Shown here: piece after piece, positions 27,400-37,459 of the stretch
How the letters are laid out: every line of letters begins with the position of its first letter
Position numbering within the stretch: the stretch's first letter is position 1
Virus record (IMG/VR): IMGVR_UViG_3300047157_000005
Span: 1 to 53,225 of that record
Direction: 5' to 3' (one strand)
DNA length: 53,225 bases
Source of the DNA: a virus
Taxonomy: Duplodnaviria; Caudoviricetes
Program-made: the position numbers and the translations under genes
Notes under the pieces: generated by a model
Database searches by the model: none
The model's input: the letters and a program-made list of their open reading frames with translations, nothing else
Told to the model about the DNA's origin: nothing

Positions 27400-27585
27400 T
27401 TATGATATAAACCACGCTGTTGCTTCGGCTTGATCTACAGCCACTTGAAGTCCAGTAGATGCCGCAAAAAAGGTAGCTTGCTTCTCAAGCTCAAGGGTAT
27501 TGGTCAATCTAGCCATATATCCTTGTTGATAATTTTCTGGTGGGCTTGGCAATCTTAAAACTGCAAGTGGTGATCCTTGTGTCAT
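27400..27585 (-). CDS. Small tail-associated protein
   Basis: LPSPPENYQQ...AWFIS; coupled to the tail stabilisation gene. Confidence 0.6.
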   Translation of the reverse strand: MTQGSPLAVLRLPSPPENYQQGYMARLTNTLELEKQATFFAASTGLQVAVDQAEATAWFIS

Positions 27586-29492
27586 CTCAATCCATCCTGA
27601 CGTGAATTAACTCTAAAATCTCCCAACGTCCAATCGTCTGTCGTGCCTGTGCTTTGGAACTTCAAAGATATCTGACGTCCTTTGGCGCGTGTGCTTACTT
27701 TTCCTGTGGAAGACGTAATCGTAAATGGTCCTTTTACAGTTTCAGGAGAGTTAGGATATTTTCTTGTATTCATATATAAAAATAAGTTTGTGCTAGAACT
27801 CATAGTAACATCTGGAACTACTTTATCCACCATATACAAATCTTCACCATTTTGTGTAATTTCACGCGGTGATCCTTCTATGTAGCTGTTCATTGCCGCG
27901 CCATTTGCGCTAGTGCCTGTCTCTTGGTTGTAAAGATACCCATCAGGGTCAAATGCAAATGGAACAGTTCGTGCGCCAAAGCTATCTGACCATACTGACC
28001 TATCCATAGTTCCAACAGTCCAAGCATTTTCTGCATAATTGTAAGTTACATAACTATCGTTTTCAGGGTTAGTTGTCTCTGTATTTTGATCACTTACATA
28101 GAACCAAGTAATCTCTTTAAATTCTTTGTTGTGTCCAGTGACAACTTTATCAATGTATCGTGTCTGCATACGATCAAATACAAAATGCTGAACAGGACAT
28201 GGTATTTCTTTTACAATACCATCATAAGTAAAGAAATTACGCTTACCCATCCAGAAGACATTTCCGTCAACAGATACCATTGTATTTAACCCAGCCGCTC
28301 CTGCGTTTGTCGCAAGTAACCTAAACGAGAATACAAAAGCACCACCAACAAATGTCATGCCATATATTGCCTCGTCAGTAGATATGATTGTCTCCTCACG
28401 AGCAGATACCATAGTTATAATTTTAGTTCCAACTTGAAGCCTCTGATCACCTGCGGTGTTTGTTGAAGTTGGATTCCAAACGCTAAAGTCTTCTTGTGTT
28501 GACCACCTGACCAACATATTATCTACATTTCCAGTGCCACCACCCACAACATAAGCCTGACATCCACCTGCTATAAAATGCCTATCTGGGAAACTAACAA
28601 CAGTAGTACGAGCCACATTAGGAACGCTATTGGCACTTGATAGTGATGATACAAGTACAGCACGATTAGTAACCCCTGCCGAAGTATCCCAATAATATAT
28701 TGCACCATTTCGAACTGTCGCAAGGACATCTTCACCCCAAAGATCTATACTCCAAGCACTATTATCTAAGCTAACACCAGCAAGCGCATCAGATCGCGGA
28801 GTACCCCACGCCTCTTGACCCCATCCACCAACGCCAAAACCAAGAGCTGGGTCAGAGCTTTGAGATCCAAGTTCAGCACCAATACCAATTAAATATTTTA
28901 CAGTAACAGTACCACCACCAGAAGCTACAGTAGAAGTCGCCGCACTTGGAGCAACAATACTGTAAGAATTTCCATTAATTCTAGTTATTTCATATCCGTA
29001 GTAACTGTTTAAATCATCTGCTGAAACACCACCAGTTGCTGATGCACCACTAATAACAACCCAATCGCCAGTTTCAGCCCCATGTGCATTATCTGTAATG
29101 ACTAAAGTCGTACTTCCATTTGTCGTGGCTATTGGGTTACTCAACCCAGTAGATGTCTTCCGCAAAGGCGTAATATCGTAAAGTGCGCCATTCTCAATAA
29201 TTAACAAGTGATTGTGAGTGCCGACAACAAGCCTATCTTCGCCATCAGTATTAGACCTCCAGTAAACCATGCGTCTGGCAATGCCTTCAATAGTAGTTTC
29301 AGTAGGCGTAATACTTCCAGAAGGATCTAGAGCAAAAATTGTATCTTTCTGCCATCCACCTATCTTTTCAGGATATCCATTTTTAAAACGAACTAAGTCA
29401 CTATCCACCCAGAAAGGCCCATTTTTGCCAGTAGCGTATTCTGTAACGTCTTTTACAATACCTGGGTTGTATTTTAAAAGTTGCAAAGGCAT
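27582..29492 (-). CDS. Tail stabilisation/tubular protein B (P22 gp10-like)
   Basis: VRFKNGYPEKIGGW, VRWSTQED, NTAGDQRL, RAKGRQISLKF, C-terminal DGLR. Confidence 0.75.
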   Translation of the reverse strand: MPLQLLKYNPGIVKDVTEYATGKNGPFWVDSDLVRFKNGYPEKIGGWQKDTIFALDPSGSITPTETTIEGIARRMVYWRSNTDGEDRLVVGTHNHLLIIENGALYDITPLRKTSTGLSNPIATTNGSTTLVITDNAHGAETGDWVVISGASATGGVSADDLNSYYGYEITRINGNSYSIVAPSAATSTVASGGGTVTVKYLIGIGAELGSQSSDPALGFGVGGWGQEAWGTPRSDALAGVSLDNSAWSIDLWGEDVLATVRNGAIYYWDTSAGVTNRAVLVSSLSSANSVPNVARTTVVSFPDRHFIAGGCQAYVVGGGTGNVDNMLVRWSTQEDFSVWNPTSTNTAGDQRLQVGTKIITMVSAREETIISTDEAIYGMTFVGGAFVFSFRLLATNAGAAGLNTMVSVDGNVFWMGKRNFFTYDGIVKEIPCPVQHFVFDRMQTRYIDKVVTGHNKEFKEITWFYVSDQNTETTNPENDSYVTYNYAENAWTVGTMDRSVWSDSFGARTVPFAFDPDGYLYNQETGTSANGAAMNSYIEGSPREITQNGEDLYMVDKVVPDVTMSSSTNLFLYMNTRKYPNSPETVKGPFTITSSTGKVSTRAKGRQISLKFQSTGTTDDWTLGDFRVNSRQDGLR

Positions 29493-30002
29493 TTAGATCA
29501 TCTCCAACGCTTGGTGTAATGTTTCTTTGTTGCGGCGCGTCCAACCTCGTCCAAAGGTTTCAAAAGTTTTTAAACTTTTATAGAAGTCTTGTCGAACGCC
29601 GTAAACATAATTTATGATCTCTTCTGGGTCTTTTTCCATGATAAGACCTAGCGTCTGTGGCCCTATGGCTCCGTCTTGTGTAGCACCTACTGCACGTTGC
29701 ACAGCTTTTGCAGGTCTACCACTGCCCGAATTTACAGCCCAATCGAAGCACGCCCAGTCTAAGCCCGATGGAAGCGAATCGCCTTTAACTCGATCCCAGT
29801 AGTTCTTCTTATATATCGGAGCTACATCTTCTGGAGTTAAGTCACGCATTTCTTGTTCAGTTGATTCACTACCAGTCCACTCATCGTACACTTTTTTGGT
29901 AACTCCCAAATTTGTGATACCTCCAGGATCTTCGGGATGATTTACGAATCCTCCTTCGTGAGAAAGAAGCATCTCTAAGCATTTATCAAAGTTCTCTTTC
30001 AT
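29493..30002 (-). CDS. Endolysin, glycoside hydrolase family 108 with peptidoglycan-binding domain
   Basis: HEGGFVNHPEDPGGITNLGVT, FDWAVNSG, DGAIGPQT, FGRGWTRR. Confidence 0.92.
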   Translation of the reverse strand: MKENFDKCLEMLLSHEGGFVNHPEDPGGITNLGVTKKVYDEWTGSESTEQEMRDLTPEDVAPIYKKNYWDRVKGDSLPSGLDWACFDWAVNSGSGRPAKAVQRAVGATQDGAIGPQTLGLIMEKDPEEIINYVYGVRQDFYKSLKTFETFGRGWTRRNKETLHQALEMI

Positions 30003-30358
30003 TTCTTACCTCCAAAATACTTACTAACACCACGCATACCAATTGATGCACTCACGATACCGCCAAGGCTATATTGATACCAACCTGGCATACTAGATAG
30101 AGCGGCAAAACCATCTTGTACAATAGCATTACCCCAATCCCCACAAAACGCCAAAATAAGGGGAATACTGAACAAAAGTGTTATCCACTCGTCTTTCCAG
30201 CTATTCTCTGTGGCTTTCATGGCGGCTAGATCCCAATCAAGCTCACCAGTGGCTATTTTCATTTTAGTTTGGGCTTCAGCTTGCTTTACGGCAGTCTTGC
30301 CCTCGATCATAGTTCCAGCAAGATCCGCGACCTTACCCAGTAATCCTAGTCCTAACAT
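29999..30358 (-). CDS. Putative holin (GTA-type 3TM holin-like)
   Basis: SWKDEW motif and hydrophobic segments; coupled to the endolysin. Confidence 0.65.
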   Translation of the reverse strand: MLGLGLLGKVADLAGTMIEGKTAVKQAEAQTKMKIATGELDWDLAAMKATENSWKDEWITLLFSIPLILAFCGDWGNAIVQDGFAALSSMPGWYQYSLGGIVSASIGMRGVSKYFGGKK

Positions 30359-30696
30359 TATGAATCACCCTTCTTTTTAATATTTGTAAAGCCAAAAAAC
30401 GCCGTAACTATACCGACCACTGCTATGCAGTAGGTAGGGGCGATAGCAGTTAAATTATCCGCCGCAACTTCTTGGCCTAAGACATTACACACAATAATCA
30501 TAACAGGATATAGTAGTAATCCCGCTAAAGAGAACCACACCATCAGTAGCTGTGAGTCCCTTTTTGAGTTCTCATCTTCAATTTGCATTCTCTTGTCATC
30601 GAGTAATAACTTATCCCATTCAGATTGGTCTACTGATCCATTTCCATCTAAATCGGCTTTCTCAAATTCTGTCATTTTAAATCTCCTAGTCAGCAA
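30358..30696 (-). CDS. EF-hand plus two-TM membrane protein (likely start MTEF, ~30675)
   Basis: DLDGNGSVDQSE is a canonical EF-hand loop; two hydrophobic helices follow. Confidence 0.7.
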   Translation of the reverse strand: MLTRRFKMTEFEKADLDGNGSVDQSEWDKLLLDDKRMQIEDENSKRDSQLLMVWFSLAGLLLYPVMIIVCNVLGQEVAADNLTAIAPTYCIAVVGIVTAFFGFTNIKKKGDS

Positions 30697-31195
30697 GAGG
30701 GTTATCTAAAGCCCTCTGCAATTTGCCCATGAGCTTATCTTCAAGTTCTTTCATTGAGCTATCTTGTGAAACCCTAACACGTTCTCTTTGATTTTCAAAG
30801 CGAACTTCTGCGTTGTCTATCATAGTACGAACCTTTTCTTCAGATTCTCGTACCATGTCCTCTATTCTGTCCACTTGAGACTCAAGCCGCAACAGATCAT
30901 CACGCAATCCATTTTTAATGTCACGACTATATTCTACTGACTCTTCTACCTTTTCAGAAATGCCAGTGACCTTTGCATCCATAACATCCATTTGTAATTG
31001 ATATTCCTCTAAGTCTAGACCTGTAACAGCTTCTATCTTTTGCCACATAAGAAATCCTGCGTACAAAGCACCTACAATTGTAGATAAAAATGCAAGTATA
31101 GCCATAATAGAACCAAACGACAGTTTCATACCACCTGTCTTAAACTCACGATCTGCAAGTCCATCAATGTTATCTGCTATCTTGGTAGTGTCCAT
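30686..31195 (-). CDS. N-anchored membrane protein with long coiled coil
   Basis: TM segment IMAILAFLSTIVGALYAGFLMW followed by heptad repeats to ALDNPLAD. Confidence 0.75.
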   Translation of the reverse strand: MDTTKIADNIDGLADREFKTGGMKLSFGSIMAILAFLSTIVGALYAGFLMWQKIEAVTGLDLEEYQLQMDVMDAKVTGISEKVEESVEYSRDIKNGLRDDLLRLESQVDRIEDMVRESEEKVRTMIDNAEVRFENQRERVRVSQDSSMKELEDKLMGKLQRALDNPLAD

Positions 31196-31593
31196 TAGTT
31201 TTCAAACTCCATCTCACCACTTGAGTTTTGTAAGTTCTTTAGTGCTTCTAGCTCATCTCGTAGCTTTTGTATCTCTAGCCTTCGCTGAGTTAGCTCTATT
31301 TGGTAAAGATCATCACAGTTAATACGAGCCTTGGGTTTATCTAAAGGGATAACTATACGTGCATACACACCTATATCTTTACCACGACTGTTTGTGTTTA
31401 ATCCTGACAGTACACCTGTCACGCCATACTCTAAGTTTACACCACCACCTACAGCGTTACTGCATCTCATATTTCCTGTCGAAAAAGAATCCGATTGGTA
31501 GTTCATTGGTGGGCTTGGCAAGGCAAGCGAAAGAGAACTATTATCTGCAAAAGCAGAACTGGCTAATAAACAAAATGTTAAAGCTATTCTCAT
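31195..31593 (-). CDS. Exported protein: Cys-bracketed amphipathic beta strands plus coiled coil
   Basis: Signal peptide MRIALTFCLLASSAFA; strands VNLEYGVTGV and IGVYARIVIPL; RC...NC pair. Confidence 0.7.
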   Translation of the reverse strand: MRIALTFCLLASSAFADNSSLSLALPSPPMNYQSDSFSTGNMRCSNAVGGGVNLEYGVTGVLSGLNTNSRGKDIGVYARIVIPLDKPKARINCDDLYQIELTQRRLEIQKLRDELEALKNLQNSSGEMEFEN

Positions 31594-31976
31594 GTAGGCT
31601 CACCATCTAACCTTGAGCATATTCTAGACGATATCAAAGTTCTAGATGTATTTGTTCTTTTTACTTTTGAAGTAGTGCAGAGATACACAGCCTCATCCAT
31701 GTCAATTTCTCGTATGTATACATCAAAAGATTTATGCTCTTTGTATTCAACCTTTATAATTCTATACGTTGTAGAGAAAGGTATGTTCATCCAATTTAAA
31801 TCAAACAAATCAATCTGGTAATACTTTATCTCTTCTCTAGAATTAAAAAGAGACATCTCCACTTTGACCACGTTTTTAACGTGAGATGTTTTTACTTCAG
31901 GGTACGCAGGCGTCATTTCGTGCGCGGACGCACCAAAAGTAACTAGCATACCTAATGTGATTAACTTACTTAGCAA
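31590..31976 (-). CDS. Exported Ig-like protein, pilus-chaperone-like
   Basis: Likely TTG start at 31976; signal ...MLVTFGASA|HEMTPAYP; all-beta pattern; YLC...RIC pair. Confidence 0.5.
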   Translation of the reverse strand: MLSKLITLGMLVTFGASAHEMTPAYPEVKTSHVKNVVKVEMSLFNSREEIKYYQIDLFDLNWMNIPFSTTYRIIKVEYKEHKSFDVYIREIDMDEAVYLCTTSKVKRTNTSRTLISSRICSRLDGEPT

Positions 31977-32454
31977 TACAGCTTGCCTGCACCACCGCAG
32001 TGTAGGTCCCACCTGGCAATGGTTTAGCTGAACCATAAGTCGCACTTGATGCAGTGCTGAACCATGTGGAGCCTGCCAATGTTAAGTTAAAGTTTGTAGT
32101 ATTACCAACTACTGTCTTAGCGGCTTCGTAAGCTGACATCCCAGAGACAGACGTTTGTGTGACACTTGTACTACCTGTCCACGCTACTGTATCTGTCAGA
32201 GAAGGAGACGAACTAAAAGCTGTTGGGTGTGTTATACTAGCTATATAAGCATCTGCTATTGAAACGTCATACCTAACAATAGGTAGTATGCCACCATCCG
32301 CAGGGGTTGTGCTTAGTTTGCTTGCAATCGGGTTTCCGTATGCACCTGACTTAGTTGTTTGGATAACACATTTAGCTTCTACGCTACCTGTTATTTCAAC
32401 ATTCGCTAGTGCTGGAAATGCACATAGTGAAAGTATTGCTATAGAATATTTCAT
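31966..32454 (-). CDS. Exported fimbrial/pilin-like subunit
   Basis: Signal MKYSIAILSLCAFPALA; mature start NVEITGSVEAKC; C-terminal PGGTYTAVV strand, both typical of chaperone-usher pilin patterns. Confidence 0.55.
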   Translation of the reverse strand: MKYSIAILSLCAFPALANVEITGSVEAKCVIQTTKSGAYGNPIASKLSTTPADGGILPIVRYDVSIADAYIASITHPTAFSSSPSLTDTVAWTGSTSVTQTSVSGMSAYEAAKTVVGNTTNFNLTLAGSTWFSTASSATYGSAKPLPGGTYTAVVQASCIAK

Positions 32455-32462
32455 TTTAGACC

Positions 32463-33335
32463 TCATTGGTTATACTGCATGTCGATCATCTCTTCGTGCA
32501 GAATTTGTTGTGCCAAATTATTACGCAAGCCTTTCTTGTTATCTGATATCTGTGAATCAGCAAGAGTAGGGGCATCATTATAAGCACCACCATTTATAGA
32601 TGCATTGTAATACATATTGATGTTAGTTTGCTGATTAATAGCCATGATAATTTGATCTTGTCCTTGCGTTTTAAATAAGGTCAACGCATTGGCAGATGCT
32701 GTTAGCCCTAATTCAATTCTAGTTTGCTCTTCTTCTTCCTCTTCAGAAAGAATTAGATTACCATCTTCATCATACTCAAAGTCGTTATCGGCGTCTATAG
32801 CACCCATAGCCTCGTCATCTTCTAGTACATCATACACTTCAACTACAGGTATTACTGGTATTGGCTTAACATAATCTGGGCATGATGGATTTAGTTGTGG
32901 ATCAAAGCATTCATCAATTCTGTAGCTATATACCACCAAAGGATCTGTCACACTTCCCTCGCCTTCAACAGTAATTGATCCATCTCCCCACTTAGAAGAG
33001 GCTACGTTAGCTAAAGGAAAAGACTTGACGATTGTATTGCCTGGCACTCCAGACCAATCATCTGTTGCGGAAAACGTATATCCTTCACCTTCCGCATTTA
33101 AGTTACGGATGTGGACTTTCATATCGTCTTCTGGGTTTTTTACTGTGGTGTATTTGTATAATAATCCATTTACATCTAAGCCAGGTATGTCAGGCAGAAC
33201 AGAACTCATACCCCAACTTAGTGCTGTGGATGCGGCATTTCCAGTTGTTCCGTAGCTATACGGATCACAAGAAGAGTAAGAAGGCCAAAGTGCTAATAAT
33301 AACACTAAGACCTGTTTTTGTTTCAATGTTTTCAT
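32463..33335 (-). CDS. Exported protein with beta-rich N-domain, CFDPQLNPSCP motif and acidic tract
   Basis: Basic then hydrophobic N-terminus; overlaps the upstream gene by 71 nt. Confidence 0.65.
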   Translation of the reverse strand: MKTLKQKQVLVLLLALWPSYSSCDPYSYGTTGNAASTALSWGMSSVLPDIPGLDVNGLLYKYTTVKNPEDDMKVHIRNLNAEGEGYTFSATDDWSGVPGNTIVKSFPLANVASSKWGDGSITVEGEGSVTDPLVVYSYRIDECFDPQLNPSCPDYVKPIPVIPVVEVYDVLEDDEAMGAIDADNDFEYDEDGNLILSEEEEEEQTRIELGLTASANALTLFKTQGQDQIIMAINQQTNINMYYNASINGGAYNDAPTLADSQISDNKKGLRNNLAQQILHEEMIDMQYNQ

Positions 33336-33819
33336 TAAAAATCTTTTTCATTGGATTGTTTTGTTCTCGCTCAATAGTCTGCTTAACTGTCTCCATTTCC
33401 CACGCAACTCTGGCCTTATCCCCCACCAACCCCATGTATGGGCAGGGCGTCCCGGCATTGAGCATTGCGTCAAAAACGCGAGAATCCTGGCAAAGGGCCG
33501 AAATCGCGGCCACCTTCATCCCCATATTATAAAGGGCTTTTGCGTTTTTTAGTTTTTCGCAGTTCATGTCTCGCACAGTTCGACCTGCTGAGATACCAAG
33601 TATCTGCGTCTGCACAGCACCTGCAACACCAACAGTACATAAATCAGAGTTACTCGTACTAATTTGTGGAGATATAGCAGAAGGTGGTGGACTGTTTATG
33701 GTAGTTTCCATAGTGCCAGTAGAAGTCACTGTGCTATCCGATTTGATTGTATCGTTATCATTAGCAAAAGCAAAACTACTACTTAATAGAAGTAATGCTA
33801 TTACAAAAAAACGTATCAT
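33265..33819 (-). CDS. Exported Cys-rich protein with C-terminal TM
   Basis: Signal MIRFFVIALLLLSSSFAFA; SPPPSAISP; four Cys; C-terminal LSVIISTLAFLLFL. Confidence 0.7.
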   Translation of the reverse strand: MIRFFVIALLLLSSSFAFANDNDTIKSDSTVTSTGTMETTINSPPPSAISPQISTSNSDLCTVGVAGAVQTQILGISAGRTVRDMNCEKLKNAKALYNMGMKVAAISALCQDSRVFDAMLNAGTPCPYMGLVGDKARVAWEMETVKQTIEREQNNPMKKIFNENIETKTGLSVIISTLAFLLFL

Positions 33820-34046
33820 TTTCTTTCTACCAATCGATCTAGCTTTTCTTCTATACGATCAAACTTACTCATAATTTGACCAAGGACTTGAGACGAGTCA
33901 GCTTTAGTGACATATTCTTTCGCCAACTCTTCTCTTGTTCTGTTCAACAAAATGGTAACGCGCTTCAGTTCTTCATGGTGGGCTTTAATCCACCATATTA
34001 AAAAACCAAATCCTGCGGTTAAACCAATGTTCCAAATAGATTCCAT
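33816..34046 (-). CDS. Small N-anchored membrane protein with coiled coil
   Basis: WNIGLTAGFGFLIWWI...TREELAKEYVTK...RIEEKLDRL. Confidence 0.7.
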   Translation of the reverse strand: MESIWNIGLTAGFGFLIWWIKAHHEELKRVTILLNRTREELAKEYVTKADSSQVLGQIMSKFDRIEEKLDRLVERK

Positions 34047-34061
34047 GTTATGTTGTGTACC

Positions 34062-34250
34062 CTATTCTGGTTTAGTAGGCCATATTACAGAGTATGGGTA
34101 TTCAGATTGGTCTTCAATATCTGCAATAGATTGGCGATAAGCTAACTGCTCGTCAGTCCCTGACCCTTCCCAACTACTTGTTTCAGATAAAATTTTATCT
34201 CTCTTAGCATGGATTAATTCTATTACTTGATTTTCTGCATCGGTATACAT
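34062..34250 (-). CDS. Tail-fibre assembly chaperone-like protein
   Basis: KRDKILSET...AYRQSIADI...YPYSVIWPTKP. Confidence 0.75.
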   Translation of the reverse strand: MYTDAENQVIELIHAKRDKILSETSSWEGSGTDEQLAYRQSIADIEDQSEYPYSVIWPTKPE

Positions 34251-35350
34251 TAGTTTGTACTCTCCCCATCTCTATATGCTACATCAGTTGATGGGAATGC
34301 TTGTCCACTCCCCAAACCCCAAACAACACGAACACATCCTCTTCTAGTGCCTCTTGTGTCGTAATCTGATGAACCACTTGGGCCTAAATCTGTATAACCA
34401 ACCCAATATCCGCCGCCAAAGCAAACCTTAGTGCCATTACTTTCACTTGTAGATGGGAAGTTTGAGGTATTAGTAGAGCCGTTTAATCCCTTAGTGGCAT
34501 TGAAACTGCTACCAGTTTGAGTATCACCAGAACCACCGGCTCCATTTGAACCTTGACCAAAGGGTGCAGTACCACCACCAGTCATACCACCGCCAAAACC
34601 AGAGCCTTGATTGAGATCGATAATATTACCGCCTCCACCTCCGCCACCATTTGATCCAGTAGCACCATTTTGAGTAGCGTTAGGTGGCGCATAAGCCGAC
34701 CCACCTGCACCGCCCGATCCGCCGTATCCTCCAGCACCACCGCCGCCTGATCCTACATAAAAAGTTACATCATTATTAGAGCCTGCATTGTTAAATCCGC
34801 CGTTTCCGCCGTTTCCGCCGCCATCACCACCTGAGTAAGTTCCGCCACTTCTTAAATTGGCGGCATTACCTCTTACATCACAAACACCAGACCTGTAAAA
34901 TCTTGCATAACTATCATTCAGCGTTACTGTAAATGTCTGACCAGCAACAACATCTATGTCGTTTTTATATGCTAAACCACCACCGCCAAATCCGCCGCCT
35001 GGATTCTGATAATAGTATTTTCTGAAAGTGTTAGGGTTAGTGTCGCCATATCCACCTTGGCCTATGCAAACAACTGATATATTTAATACACCAGTAGGTA
35101 CTGTAAACGTGTAACTACTAGAGCCAAAACTAGATTCACTACTAGTTGATGGGTCTTGAACAAATAGGTGTGCGCCTTCTACTTCGTTTCCAGCAGTCGC
35201 ACCATACCATTCATTCATAGCCATTTGTGTGCCAGCACTTTTATCAATCATATCCCGAACATCTGCATCGTTTAAGGAAATCTGACCTGTAACATCTAGT
35301 TCAGTCCTGAAGTCATTTAAAGATAGTTGCCCACTTGTTGGTAACGCCAT
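34250..35350 (-). CDS. Glycine-rich tail fibre / receptor-binding protein
   Basis: MALPTSGQLSLND N-terminus; FTVPTGVLNISVVCIG..G glycine-rich domain. Confidence 0.75.
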   Translation of the reverse strand: MALPTSGQLSLNDFRTELDVTGQISLNDADVRDMIDKSAGTQMAMNEWYGATAGNEVEGAHLFVQDPSTSSESSFGSSSYTFTVPTGVLNISVVCIGQGGYGDTNPNTFRKYYYQNPGGGFGGGGLAYKNDIDVVAGQTFTVTLNDSYARFYRSGVCDVRGNAANLRSGGTYSGGDGGGNGGNGGFNNAGSNNDVTFYVGSGGGGAGGYGGSGGAGGSAYAPPNATQNGATGSNGGGGGGGNIIDLNQGSGFGGGMTGGGTAPFGQGSNGAGGSGDTQTGSSFNATKGLNGSTNTSNFPSTSESNGTKVCFGGGYWVGYTDLGPSGSSDYDTRGTRRGCVRVVWGLGSGQAFPSTDVAYRDGESTN

Positions 35351-35355
35351 CTAAC

Positions 35356-37035
35356 TTACCTCGCTTTTAGCTCTTCGATTTCAGCTTTAAGTTCTTTGAT
35401 TGCTTCAATCATTAATCCATGAAGTTGGTCATACTGCACTGTCTTGTATTCAGTCTTATCATCTTCACCCATCTTTAAAGGCAACGTGCTTTCAGTAATT
35501 GCACTTGGCATTACCTTCTCGACTTCTTGAGCAATAACGCCAGCAGACTTTTTGCCATCAGCTAAGTATTCAAATGTGTAACCATTTAGCTGTGATACTT
35601 TATCCAAGGCATTGTCTATCTTCACGATGTCTTTCTTTAGACGCTCATCAGAGATTGTTGTAGAGTAAGCAATGACGTTGCCTTCGACGTGTAAATCGCC
35701 ACTGTTATATAGGCGCATGTCGGTAGCTCCATCAAGAGCAAAGTCTATCATCGTGCTTTCAACAGAAATAAAATCACTGGTATCACGTCCAATTTTCTCA
35801 ACCTCACCACGACAGTCGCCGCTGTTGATTTGGCCTGTTACTGTGATACCGCTTGATGTTGTTTCAAATTTCTTGGAGTTGTTATGGTATAGCTCTACCC
35901 CACCATCAGCGATAAATTTACCCATATATTCGGAATCTGTTTTTGTAATGCGAACATCAGTACCATTTGTATCAATTCTTAATTCACCAGTGCCGCTATC
36001 TTGCACATAACTATTAGACCCATCATGGTAAATCCGTAAATCATCACTGTTTCCTAACCTTAACTCGTCATTATCTTGCAAGTACACATGGTCTTGAAAA
36101 GATGCACCTTTGTTAAAGAGAGCTTGTCCAGCATCAGACATATCAAGACGAAGGACTTCTCTTTCTACGCCACCATCATTACCTTTAAAAATAATGTCTT
36201 TGTCTTGGATTATAGATTTAAAAACAGCATCTTCACCATTTCTTCTAATACTTGCAAAGTGTAATCCACCATCCTTAAAAATGATATCAGCACCATCCGC
36301 ATCAAGAATAATCTCCCCTGCGGAATCTAGTGTTAAGTCGCCGTTAGGTGCAGATATAATACCATTTACACCAGAGTTACCTATTGATAAATCTCCGTCA
36401 TTTCCAAATATAGCCGCGCCACTATCATTGACGATTAAATTGTTAGTGCCTCCAACAGTAATATTACCACCAGATGTTATAGCACCTGAAAACGTACCAG
36501 TTGTTCCTGATACCGCACTTGAAAACGTACCAGTTGTACCTGATACTGCACCTGAGAATGTACCAGTTGTACCTGATACTGCACCTGCGGATGCTAAAGC
36601 ACCAACACTCAAAGAATCAAAAGCATCTACCATTTTAGCACCAGAGCCTACGCCATCAGAGTAGATTGCTTTAGTTTTACCACTAGCAATCGTAACTGTT
36701 GCACCAGATCCTTGCTTAATAATAATGTTTTGAGATCCACTTGTGGCATTTTCAATAAACCAAAGTTTACTAACAGTATTTGGGCCTATTGTAATTGTAC
36801 AAGCTGAGTCCAACGTACCTGTATACTTTAAGAACATTGAACGACCTGGATCAGTAGCCCCATCTGCTATTGTTGTTGTATGCGTGTCAGCGTTTGTCGT
36901 TATAGCTTCAGTGCCATAAGAAAAAGCCTCTGCAATTAATTCGAGGTTTGTATTCGTTACTGTACCCCATGAGCCTGACTGATCGCCAGTTGCCATCTCA
37001 TTGAGGCGTAAGTCATTTACATAGGTTGAAGCCAT
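35356..37035 (-). CDS. Tail fibre with C-terminal intramolecular chaperone (peptidase S74)
   Basis: SDERLKKDI, GVIAQEVEKVMP, LMIEAIKEL; three 11-aa AVSGTTGTFS repeats at ~36480-36585; fibre DLRIYHDGSNSY motifs. Confidence 0.88.
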   Translation of the reverse strand: MASTYVNDLRLNEMATGDQSGSWGTVTNTNLELIAEAFSYGTEAITTNADTHTTTIADGATDPGRSMFLKYTGTLDSACTITIGPNTVSKLWFIENATSGSQNIIIKQGSGATVTIASGKTKAIYSDGVGSGAKMVDAFDSLSVGALASAGAVSGTTGTFSGAVSGTTGTFSSAVSGTTGTFSGAITSGGNITVGGTNNLIVNDSGAAIFGNDGDLSIGNSGVNGIISAPNGDLTLDSAGEIILDADGADIIFKDGGLHFASIRRNGEDAVFKSIIQDKDIIFKGNDGGVEREVLRLDMSDAGQALFNKGASFQDHVYLQDNDELRLGNSDDLRIYHDGSNSYVQDSGTGELRIDTNGTDVRITKTDSEYMGKFIADGGVELYHNNSKKFETTSSGITVTGQINSGDCRGEVEKIGRDTSDFISVESTMIDFALDGATDMRLYNSGDLHVEGNVIAYSTTISDERLKKDIVKIDNALDKVSQLNGYTFEYLADGKKSAGVIAQEVEKVMPSAITESTLPLKMGEDDKTEYKTVQYDQLHGLMIEAIKELKAEIEELKAR

Positions 37036-37036
37036 A

Positions 37037-37459
37037 CTAGTCTATCCTTATAATTGCGTTGTTAGCTGTCTGAGCAGGGAAAACAACTCTGAATGTACCT
37101 GAAGAAACTGTGAAGTCTCCACCAAAGTCTAATACAGCGATAGCTCTATCTCCGTCTGTATCATTATATATTAACGCACCACGCGCTGTAAAAGTAGCTG
37201 ATGTCCACTCAGGATTATCAGCGTCAAAACATCCGCTTGTTCCGTTTTCAATTACAGATGCGTTTGCCAGTGTTACTCCACCAGTAGCGTATCCGTTACC
37301 ATTAGCAACTTCATTCGATGTTGTGTAAGTATCAGTAGTAGCATCTAAACTTGCACTACTTGTGTAGAGAGCGATCTTTATTGTATCACTGTCTAAGTCA
37401 TGTAACCCAAGCATTACATCTTTTTTAAATTGGGTACACATTGCTTGTGTAATAGCCAT
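37037..37459 (-). CDS. Virion structural protein
   Basis: KIALYTSSA...NEV..GYATGG...ARGALIYN...VLDFGGD motifs typical of a marine phage structural family. Confidence 0.7.
   Translation of the reverse strand: MAITQAMCTQFKKDVMLGLHDLDSDTIKIALYTSSASLDATTDTYTTSNEVANGNGYATGGVTLANASVIENGTSGCFDADNPEWTSATFTARGALIYNDTDGDRAIAVLDFGGDFTVSSGTFRVVFPAQTANNAIIRID

Follow-up and report, generated by a model that had tools for sequence, protein, structure and literature searches.

What do six consecutive genes for apparently exported proteins do in the late region of a lytic phage? The question is raised by IMG/VR record IMGVR_UViG_3300047157_000005, a complete viral record of 53,225 bp (CheckV, 100% complete; this whole stretch of DNA is referred to as the window), in which the genes, here designated A to F, lie between tail-fibre genes and the genes for a putative holin and an endolysin (Table 1). 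A sequence-only reading had proposed a self-contained envelope or surface machine with pilin-like and chaperone-like exported proteins and no usher. The analysis described here indicates that C and D probably form a pilin-chaperone pair in the structural sense, that the cassette is a composite of two portable modules, and, more tentatively, that the block serves as the envelope-acting arm of a lysis cassette. The placement given earlier was correct for the six overlapping or coupled genes as such; two small genes lie between the fibre genes and A, and a further gene, h112, lies between F and the putative holin gene, h119.

Export signals and cysteine positions were assigned from hydropathy by a heuristic rule (charged start, hydrophobic core, small-residue cleavage motif). 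The N-termini of A to E follow this n-h-c layout, with hydrophobic cores of 10-15 residues. When a crude form of the rule was applied to the 85 gene-like open reading frames (ORFs) of the window, seven matched, and six of these were the adjacent genes A to F. The mature parts of A to E carry even numbers of cysteines. Comparison of homologues shows variable signal regions next to invariant mature N-termini, namely HEMTPAYP in D and the LPSPP region in E. The earlier claim of signal-like N-termini and paired mature cysteines in five proteins is upheld by the hydropathy rule with two amendments: Cys23 of B and Cys8 of E fall inside the signal peptides and neither is conserved, and the start of D was moved to TTG 31976. 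This layout suggests that A to E enter the periplasm via cleavable Sec-type signals, where they are probably stabilised by disulfides.

C has a signal-like N-terminus ending in ALA, followed by NVE as the predicted mature start, and cysteines at the start and the end of the mature part. In 20 aligned sequences Cys29 is conserved to at least 90% and Cys159 is invariant; by sequence position the pair joins the first and last strands. The pilin-like ends that had been pointed out in this protein, NVEITGSVEAKC and PGGTYTAVV, are both present. An AlphaFold2 (AF2) model built from the 20-sequence alignment was all-beta, with a predicted local distance difference test score (pLDDT) of 90.4 and a predicted template modelling score (pTM) of 0.78, and its first strand started at Cys29. 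Residues 18-28 (NVEITGSVEAK) were in no modelled strand; nevertheless at least 90% of the 20 sequences, which are as little as 40% identical to C, keep I21, G23 and V25 of this segment. In a Foldseek comparison of the model with the PDB, six of the ten best matches were chains or domains of chaperone-usher pilins (9fy9_F, 2wmp_B, 3me0_B, 6fqa_D, 5iqm_A and 4y2n_C), comprising a chain of the FimD tip complex, the PapG pilin domain (twice), CsuA/B, FimG and CfaB; Caf1, CsuE and FimF followed. These matches were weak (E values of 7e-3 to 2e-2 and query-normalised TM-scores of 0.30-0.42 for the ten best; none at E≤1e-3). In the protein-language-model Atlas an SCPU cluster was retrieved for C at a cosine of 0.95, with the family present on 15% of the cluster members. 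A fold search of BFVD with C returned unnamed proteins only, all weaker than E=1e-3, and sequence and profile searches of the PDB gave no match. Comparison of the C family with four E. coli Fim pilins by hhalign (probability 14.8%, E value 0.0018) aligned only the signal peptide, the N-terminal strand and the cysteine. A hidden Markov model (HMM) of the C family, run against 400 sampled genomes of one class, matched only the centre genome, that is, a phage contig in a metagenome-assembled genome (MAG), apart from one marginal match (E value 0.007).

D, the next gene, had been described as coding for a small all-beta protein, and it was indeed modelled by AF2 as a one-domain sandwich of six strands (pLDDT 78.3). 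As the mature start HEMTPAYP is invariant in 10 of 10 aligned homologues, translation most likely begins at TTG 31976; read from there, D has a signal-like N-terminus, two cysteines and about 109 mature residues. Ranks 1-9 of the Foldseek search were occupied by the F4 fimbrial chaperone FaeE, then by Caf1M, DraB, PapD, FimC, SfaE and CupB2, in all cases with the first chaperone domain only. Again the matches were weak (E values 2.1e-3 to 4e-2, query-normalised TM-scores 0.37-0.51, none at E≤1e-3). An assignment of D to SLT_beta (E value 0.037) or HGLS was rejected because both matches were under the cut-offs and lay partly in the out-of-frame N-terminal extension of the long form.

A complex of C with D was predicted with a score of 0.60, compared with 0.03 for the best of three controls, and was rated as weak support; the runs agreed in at least 93% of the contacts, and the pLDDT of the partner was at least 83. 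In the calibration of this score, 58 of 80 solved complexes and 2 of 110 mismatched pairs passed the threshold; only 7 of the 80, and both of the passing mismatches, did so with values of 0.60 or lower. Pilin matches for C, chaperone matches for D and predicted binding between the two are three independent, individually weak lines which agree, and this agreement argues for a pilin-chaperone pair. Four observations speak against it: (i) the fold matches of C and D are all weaker than E=1e-3, with TM-scores of 0.30-0.52 among the ten best; (ii) C matched no Pfam family at E≤1, and PF05229 found nothing in the window at E≤10; (iii) PF00345, the family considered for D, had no match in the window at E≤10, and hhalign of D against FimC gave a probability of 0.09%; (iv) by the tool's calibration, a pass in the score band of the C-D complex is wrong in more cases than it is right, save for guesses that were likely beforehand, and the score may reflect likeness to solved chaperone-pilin complexes. 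By sequence and by operon C and D fall outside the chaperone-usher family. The absence of an usher was confirmed, as PF00577 had no match at E≤10 in the window, in the Vibrio phages pVp-1 and Bennett or in three IMG/VR records. The pilin fold proposed for C is thus suggested by the identity of its best PDB matches, while their E values and the silent profiles leave it short of a family assignment. On balance we consider it probable that C and D are a pilin-chaperone pair in the structural sense, C being approximately a pilin-type immunoglobulin (Ig)-fold subunit with a conserved free N-terminal strand and D a one-domain fold relative of PapD-type chaperones.

The remaining four proteins differ in architecture. 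In A the signal-like N-terminus is followed by a Ser/Thr-rich linker, a domain with four cysteines (Cys 61/87/110/126) and a C-terminal hydrophobic tail. All 13 homologues aligned, among them proteins from pelagiphages, roseophages and Ralstonia phage, retain the four cysteines, and A belongs to phrog_20531 (2.3e-13). B consists of a signal-like start, a beta-rich N-terminal part with Cys 143/152, an acidic stretch and a conserved C-terminal end. E, a member of phrog_37374 (3.8e-9) with a mature part of about 115 residues, has a signal-like start, a Pro-rich start of the mature part, Cys 44/93, a C-terminal helix and the invariant end M-x-F-E-N. F contains a hydrophobic segment of 28 residues (23-50), which agrees with the N-terminal transmembrane segment noted before, a charged remainder devoid of cysteine and the invariant end NPL. 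The layout of F suggests an N-terminal membrane anchor with a long helical periplasmic part, a topology like that of an i-spanin; the helicity, and with it the long coiled coil of the sequence-only reading, is indicated by composition and by weak matches to coiled-coil families. A would be held additionally by its C-terminal membrane tail, and F would stay in the inner membrane. Apart from coiled-coil noise, A to F gave nothing above noise in Pfam, NCBIfam and PADLOC; ten A and B homologues of cultured phages had no Pfam match, the Atlas yielded no usable match for A, and the PHROG families matched by A, C and E are all labelled 'unknown function'. An A-E homology based on a shared Pro-rich, Cys, Gly-rich motif was discarded (hhalign probability 1.3%). 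The idea that E oligomerises into a beta-hairpin pore was likewise abandoned, as the Gly-rich amphipathic hairpin is not conserved and is a charged loop in Vibrio-phage homologues.

The cassette is a composite of two modules, A+B+F and C+D+E, each of which is also found alone, and the proposal of a single self-contained machine is not supported. A+B+F recurs in phages of SAR11 and Roseobacter, and the four-Cys domain of A was found in 12 cultured or deposited phage records. In the pelagiphages HTVC115P, HTVC202P, HTVC033P, HTVC023P, Mosig and Baldr, A is followed by a gene in the position of B and then by one in the position of F. The protein in the B position is large and exported; a beta-rich N-terminal part leads through an acidic stretch of low complexity to a helical end. 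Its equivalence to B rests on position, on architecture and on a weak similarity of 46 C-terminal residues (B against HTVC115P gp53, E value 0.032). The protein in the F position is small and has an N-terminal transmembrane segment, a helical body and a C-terminal NPL motif. F matched HTVC115P gp49 with an E value of 2.5e-14, and its topology and NPL end are found in HTVC202P gp26, HTVC033P gp44, HTVC023P gp48, Mosig_200 and Baldr_004, where these two features alone make the match. C, D and E were absent from the A+B+F-type pelagiphages inspected.

The other module was reached through E, for which 182 Vibrio phage records were found. In pVp-1 and Bennett, T5-like Vibrio phages of the Demerecviridae, the order gp077-gp078-gp079 corresponds to C-D-E, and A, B and F are absent. 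In hhalign-type comparisons C aligned with pVp-1 gp077 at a probability of 96.3% (E value 1.8e-9), D with gp078 at an E value of 4e-6, and E with gp079 at 3e-13. A tblastn search with C against cultured phages gave no match at E≤0.01, the Vibrio homologue being reached only via E and then by profile. For the Vibrio-phage homologue of E the start codon is an ATG preceded by a strong ribosome-binding site, and the N-terminus of the protein is hydrophobic. As there are A+B+F phages without C-D-E and Vibrio phages without A, B and F, C-D-E was inserted between B and F, or the reverse took place. The distribution of the modules also bears on the view that the products serve as virion or ejection proteins and that their hydrophobic N-termini have no export function. 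In position, the genes do fall among the structural and late genes, with the fibre genes on one side and a gene for a 636-aa homologue of a 'constituent protein' on the other. However, genomes of podo-, sipho- and myovirus type, whose virions are unrelated, carry the modules, the five n-h-c layouts are consecutive and combine variable signals with invariant mature starts, the conserved cysteines are even in number only in the mature parts, and the fold relatives are periplasmic. A virion role is therefore regarded as highly improbable.

The spread of the cassette was followed from C and from E. For C, 330 relatives in IMG/VR were confirmed by tblastn, and 765 clusters, all unnamed, were present in a set of 5.8 billion proteins. 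Close relatives were analysed at the best 80 of the 330 IMG/VR loci (C 81-100% identical). Wherever the DNA covered the expected place, the other genes were found at the expected offset: A in 66 of 66 loci, B in 70 of 70, D in 74 of 74, E in 68 of 68 and F in 62 of 62. A scan seeded with E found 480 relatives in IMG/VR. Among 77 new loci analysed four were T5-like Vibrio phage genomes, and the remaining 73 all had the order A-B-C-D-E-F at 26-87% identity. The predicted co-occurrence of the genes elsewhere was thereby verified both for close and for more distant loci. When one genome per species of 185,579 prokaryote species was scanned with a pattern for E, four loci were found in three MAGs of three unrelated taxa; they carry A-F or B-F in cassette order on contigs of 3-36 kb and are read as binned phage contigs. 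In a Rhodobacteraceae MAG (G002, the source of loci L096 and L098) five different copies of C were present on five contigs, most likely binned phage contigs as well, which may be a hint at the host or a binning artefact. The four-Cys domain of A comprises at least 7961 protein clusters at 90% identity, all unnamed, and its HMM matched three of the 400 sampled genomes besides the centre genome.

Median dN/dS ratios (nonsynonymous to synonymous substitution rates) relative to the window were 0.106 for A, 0.086 for B, 0.048 for C, 0.095 for D, 0.064 for E and 0.070 for F; they indicate purifying selection, although the ratios are rough because dS is near saturation. We regard A to F as real late phage genes with products bound for the host envelope, export itself being read from the signal layout. 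The strong conservation of C is at odds with a surface fibre or adhesin, the mini-pilus of the sequence-only reading, in which C would polymerise by donor-strand exchange and be displayed via a host usher or a channel formed by E. Such a fibre would account for the pilin-like fold and conserved N-terminal strand of C, for the chaperone-like D and for the C-D score relative to its controls. Yet C is the most, not the least, conserved component (at least 81% identity over the 80 loci), and there is no route across the outer membrane: an usher was found neither in the window nor in the five related records, and E is small, with its hairpin replaced by a charged loop in Vibrio phages. No cellular relatives of C were seen in the 400 sampled genomes of one class, so that no host system to plug into is evident, and a lytic phage gains little by decorating a cell about to burst. 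We consider this explanation improbable.

Linkage to lysis genes was determined in 84 loci (the 80 closest IMG/VR loci and the four MAG loci), of which 52 hold at least 2 kb beyond F. An endolysin-like gene was located within 2.5 kb beyond F in 50 of these 52. Four pairings of holin and endolysin were observed: GTA_holin_3TM with GH19 (20 loci), h119 with GH108 (18), h119 with GH19 (7) and the GTA-type holin with GH108 (5); GTA_holin_3TM was identified by PF11351 (8.3e-24; for example L039:8111-8512). Holin and endolysin have thus been exchanged for unrelated families while the cassette stayed, which means that the linkage to lysis survives gene swapping. The occurrence of two unrelated holin types and two endolysin types in all four combinations after one cassette shows clearly that modules are reshuffled within a single phage group. 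Of 11 phage contexts inspected, six (window, HTVC033P, HTVC023P, CRP-207, CRP-810 and MW202481) have A within four genes of a lysozyme or M15 peptidase annotated by the depositors. In HTVC202P and Baldr the A module abuts the terminase gene, and in HTVC115P, Mosig and RSP15 no endolysin was present in the stretch inspected around A. In 17 of the more distant loci extra genes are found between E and F. Nine of these were inspected (L107, L109, L113, L120, L123, L125, L128, L133 and L145) and the cargo included Lipase_3 (7e-22, without signal peptide), a signal-bearing Endonuclease_NS (9e-53), SNase, DUF1353 and small transmembrane proteins. Such functions serve to dismantle the cell, and they support a neighbourhood devoted to lysis and exit.

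The same loci speak to two other functions. The first is superinfection exclusion, or a remodelling of the envelope that has nothing to do with lysis: some structure on the host surface would be masked, removed or jammed by the exported proteins, and in one variant C, delivered by D, would act as a chain terminator on a host usher and may block adsorption of other phages, or of the phage's own progeny, to infected cells and debris. Exported proteins near tail-fibre genes, in a slot between fibre and lysis genes that is prone to cargo, are compatible with this, and the list of fold matches of D includes a complex of FimC with the assembly inhibitor FimI (7b0w). Known exclusion proteins of the T5 and T1 type are small envelope proteins encoded near fibre genes. 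However, the cassette is 81-99% identical where the neighbouring fibre gene is only 37-50% identical, and this constancy speaks against a device tailored to the receptor-binding protein. Early expression is the rule for exclusion genes, whereas the block is part of an uninterrupted same-strand run without promoter or terminator signal above chance; since the counts in that scan equalled those of shuffled sequence, the scan itself is uninformative. Furthermore, PADLOC returned nothing beyond coiled-coil noise, six proteins including a coiled-coil anchor in the inner membrane are much for masking, and the holin and endolysin linkage is kept in nearly all loci with sufficient DNA. Exclusion is unlikely, though it is the alternative we take most seriously. 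The second function is that of a periplasmic sensor or regulator of lysis timing, comparable to an antiholin that binds the periplasmic part of a holin. The exported proteins adjoin two holin-like membrane proteins, and a precedent exists in the signal-peptide-bearing T4 antiholin RI (PMC8385771, PMC11413866). An unchanged cassette next to holins of either family (h119 or GTA_holin_3TM) is unexpected for a holin-specific binder, and six genes with a pilin-chaperone pair go far beyond the known needs of an antiholin, which makes a timing device quite improbable, somewhat more so than a surface fibre.

For a lysis role proper, the question is how the cassette relates to spanins. A lipobox scan of the whole window gave four matches, all antisense to the coding strand, and no lipobox ORF of at least 20 aa was found inside or after F. 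With no lipobox ORF on a coding strand, the window encodes neither a two-component nor a unimolecular spanin of the conventional type. In pVp-1 and Bennett a small lipobox ORF comes after C-D-E, and the holin and endolysin genes lie about 200 nt further on. A spanin survey lists pVp-1 with a two-component spanin, the i-spanin being a singleton and the o-spanin belonging to a family of two (PMC6139136). By position, this pair would be the E homologue and the adjoining lipoprotein. T5 has an Rz-like spanin pair (T5.045/T5.044) upstream of its holin and endolysin, and E, F, A and B showed no similarity to the T5 spanins. Taken together, synteny and architecture make it possible that the whole block is the envelope-acting arm of a lysis cassette, in a genome without a lipoprotein spanin; we put this forward as the best single explanation, at rather less than an even chance. 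Among the functions offered by the sequence-only reading, a non-canonical lysis apparatus is the one that fits the synteny best; taken as a whole, its interpretation is supported in part.

Seven considerations tell against a lysis role. (i) No known lysis family matches any of A to F. (ii) Accessory cargo genes are classically found between fibre and lysis genes, so that synteny by itself does not prove a role in lysis. (iii) The related loci are kin and not independent samples. (iv) CRP-901 and CRP-902, which share the backbone of the window phage, have no cassette and no canonical spanin either. (v) In locus L107 an ORF of 126 aa with a lipobox and a C-terminal transmembrane segment, similar to a u-spanin, lies inside the cassette; if it works as a spanin, the cassette is not simply a spanin substitute. 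(vi) In the T5-like Vibrio phages C-D-E stands beside a lipoprotein and may only be the companion of a conventional spanin pair. (vii) One homologue of A is encoded by a chromosomal, non-prophage gene for an exported protein near recA and alaS in one bacterium (L188:8931-9881, with no phage genes in view), and the A domain is therefore an envelope domain with cellular relatives, though rare ones. A displacement argument, according to which a canonical spanin would occupy the cassette slot of CRP-901 and CRP-902, was dropped, as none is there.

If the block is an arm of the lysis cassette, the course of events that we infer, with its lysis role, export, disulfides, C-D binding and polymerisation, would be as follows. 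The block would be made late in one same-strand run, and the five exported proteins would fold with disulfides in the periplasm. F, together with the tail of A in the lineage of the window, would hold the assembly at the inner membrane, while B, with its variable beta-rich head and acidic spacer, and the Cys domain of A would reach toward the wall or the outer membrane. E might couple through its conserved C-terminal helix and invariant end to F in this phage and to the lipoprotein in the Vibrio phages. D would keep C capped. After holin triggering and wall degradation the complex would help to rupture or detach the outer membrane, and C, once freed from D, could undergo strand-exchange assembly, a possible source of energy that requires neither ATP nor membrane potential. 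In its most specific form the usher-free pair encoded by two genes would be a periplasmic stored-energy device, with C assembling between an inner-membrane tether (E-F and A) and the outer layers (B) and so pulling apart or piercing the outer membrane. This version is a speculative one and is itself unlikely, slightly more so than exclusion. Whatever probability is not taken up by the explanations discussed is left to others beyond them.

The cassette was compared with four kinds of known systems. Like chaperone-usher pili (Fim, Pap and F4, and the archaic Csu and SCPU-type pilins), C appears to combine a Sec-type signal, a pilin-type Ig fold and a conserved N-terminal strand followed by a cysteine, and the adjacent gene D codes for a predicted beta-sandwich with FaeE, Caf1M, PapD and FimC as its best fold matches. 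Unlike in these systems, D has one domain, its mature length contrasting with about 190-210 residues in the matched chaperone chains (PapD-type chaperones have two domains), and the phage cassette has neither usher nor Pfam or profile match and is situated inside the lysis block of lytic phages. With two-component spanins (lambda Rz/Rz1 and the T5 pair) it shares the i-spanin layout of F, coupled overlapping genes beside holin and endolysin, the position of F two genes from the putative holin, and the location of the Vibrio-phage E homologue directly before the lipobox ORF; it differs from them in lacking an outer-membrane lipoprotein partner in the window, in its five extra exported proteins and in the absence of similarity to T5 spanins. 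A resembles a unimolecular spanin of the T1 gp11 type in having an N-terminal export signal and a C-terminal membrane segment, so that its bulk is possibly periplasmic at the inner membrane. Its predicted cleavage site is, however, of the signal-peptidase-I type without lipobox and hence provides no outer-membrane lipid anchor, most pelagiphage homologues of A lack the C-terminal segment, and a u-spanin-like ORF was found only in L107. Finally, the T4 antiholin RI and lipoproteins of the T5 Llp and Cor type are likewise encoded by phages, carry Sec signals and function in the periplasm or the outer membrane once a cell is infected. They are single small proteins, to which no similarity was found, whereas the cassette varies with neither holin nor fibre type.

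The backbone of the window phage is similar to that of the Roseobacter phages CRP-901 and CRP-902. On the minus strand two fibre-type genes are followed by genes for proteins of 62 and 76 aa, then by A to F, h112, h119, the endolysin gene and the gene for the 636-aa protein, which is a homologue of the CRP 'constituent protein'. The 76-aa gene (tmcc76) is also present in CRP-901 and CRP-902, both of which are without the cassette. Neighbouring genes of the cassette overlap or abut; the shared stretch measures 71 nt for A/B, 4 nt for D/E and 1 nt for E/F. At 33265-33335 one stretch of DNA codes in different frames for the C-terminal membrane segment of A and the signal peptide of B, an arrangement that recalls overlapped spanin gene pairs. 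In most relatives h112 is the next gene after F and travels with the cassette beside holins and endolysins; CRP-207 gp72 is of the h112 type. The EF-hand_5 match of h112 (E value 2.9e-4) is under Pfam's curated cut-off, and its product could be a calcium-binding holin or antiholin. HTVC033P gp49, which adjoins the lysozyme of that phage, belongs to phrog_2524, as does h119. The 62-aa gene ends in WPTKPE, and HTVC115P gp55 (L084:5513-5854) ends in FPTKPE at the same position; ends of this type are presumably those of tail-fibre assembly proteins. Contigs from RNA libraries (three marine runs of one study and one run of another) cover most of 27500-37100 at 90% identity or more, including the six genes; they show neither strand nor level, and DNA carry-over is possible. 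The sole part of that region without cover in the four runs is 34241-35203, in the Gly-rich fibre gene. Of the 80 closest related loci just one, L083, gave a tblastn match to this gene, which is thus hypervariable.

Table 1. Positions of the cassette genes and their neighbours in the window, and of cargo between E and F in related loci (locus label before the colon).
Feature	Position	Strand	Description
Fibre-type gene 1	35356-37035	-	
Gly-rich fibre gene (fibre-type gene 2)	34250-35350	-	
62-aa gene	34062-34250	-	follows the Gly-rich fibre gene; C-terminal end WPTKPE
tmcc76	33816-34046	-	76 aa; N-terminal hydrophobic (transmembrane) segment and helical rest; phrog_462 (2.3e-8); upstream flank of the cassette
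A	33265-33819	-	ORF of 184 aa
B	32463-33335	-	ORF of 290 aa
C	31966-32454	-	162 aa; 166 aa from the alternative ATG at 32466
D	31590-31976	-	128 aa from TTG 31976; ORF open from 32045
E	31195-31593	-	ORF of 132 aa
F	30686-31195	-	ORF of 169 aa
h112	30358-30696	-	likely start ATG 30675; EF-hand-like N-terminus and two transmembrane segments
h119	29999-30358	-	putative holin; phrog_2524 (6.7e-31)
Endolysin	29493-30002	-	GH108 and peptidoglycan-binding domain; PF05838 (5.8e-31); phrog_315 endolysin (7.2e-50)
Cargo between E and F	L133:5400-7722; L109:5436-6518; L107:5408-5785; also L099, L120, L123, L128		

In the literature searched, no description was found of phage-encoded proteins of the chaperone-usher type or of this cassette, and machinery of the kind seen here appears not to have been described in phages before. 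In our reading the pair is a pilin-chaperone system that has neither usher nor the second domain of the chaperone and is encoded, together with four proteins outside the known families, within the lysis block of a phage. If this is true, a well-studied assembly principle would be put to a new use in such a pair, which would function without an usher and beside holin and endolysin in a lytic phage. A spanin survey counts 91 phage genomes without identifiable spanin (PMC6139136). The cassette genes are abundant in ocean viromes, where the families of A, C and E carry no functional name, and they bear on how phages of SAR11, Roseobacter and other marine bacteria cross the outer membrane. As C-D-E is present in cultured T5-like Vibrio phages, and A-B-F in pelagiphages and roseophages that have also been cultured, the idea is directly testable by deletion and localisation. 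Should the stored-energy version hold, it would add a third kind of outer-membrane disruption to spanins and membrane-active peptides, one widespread among both ocean phages and T5-like Vibrio phages.

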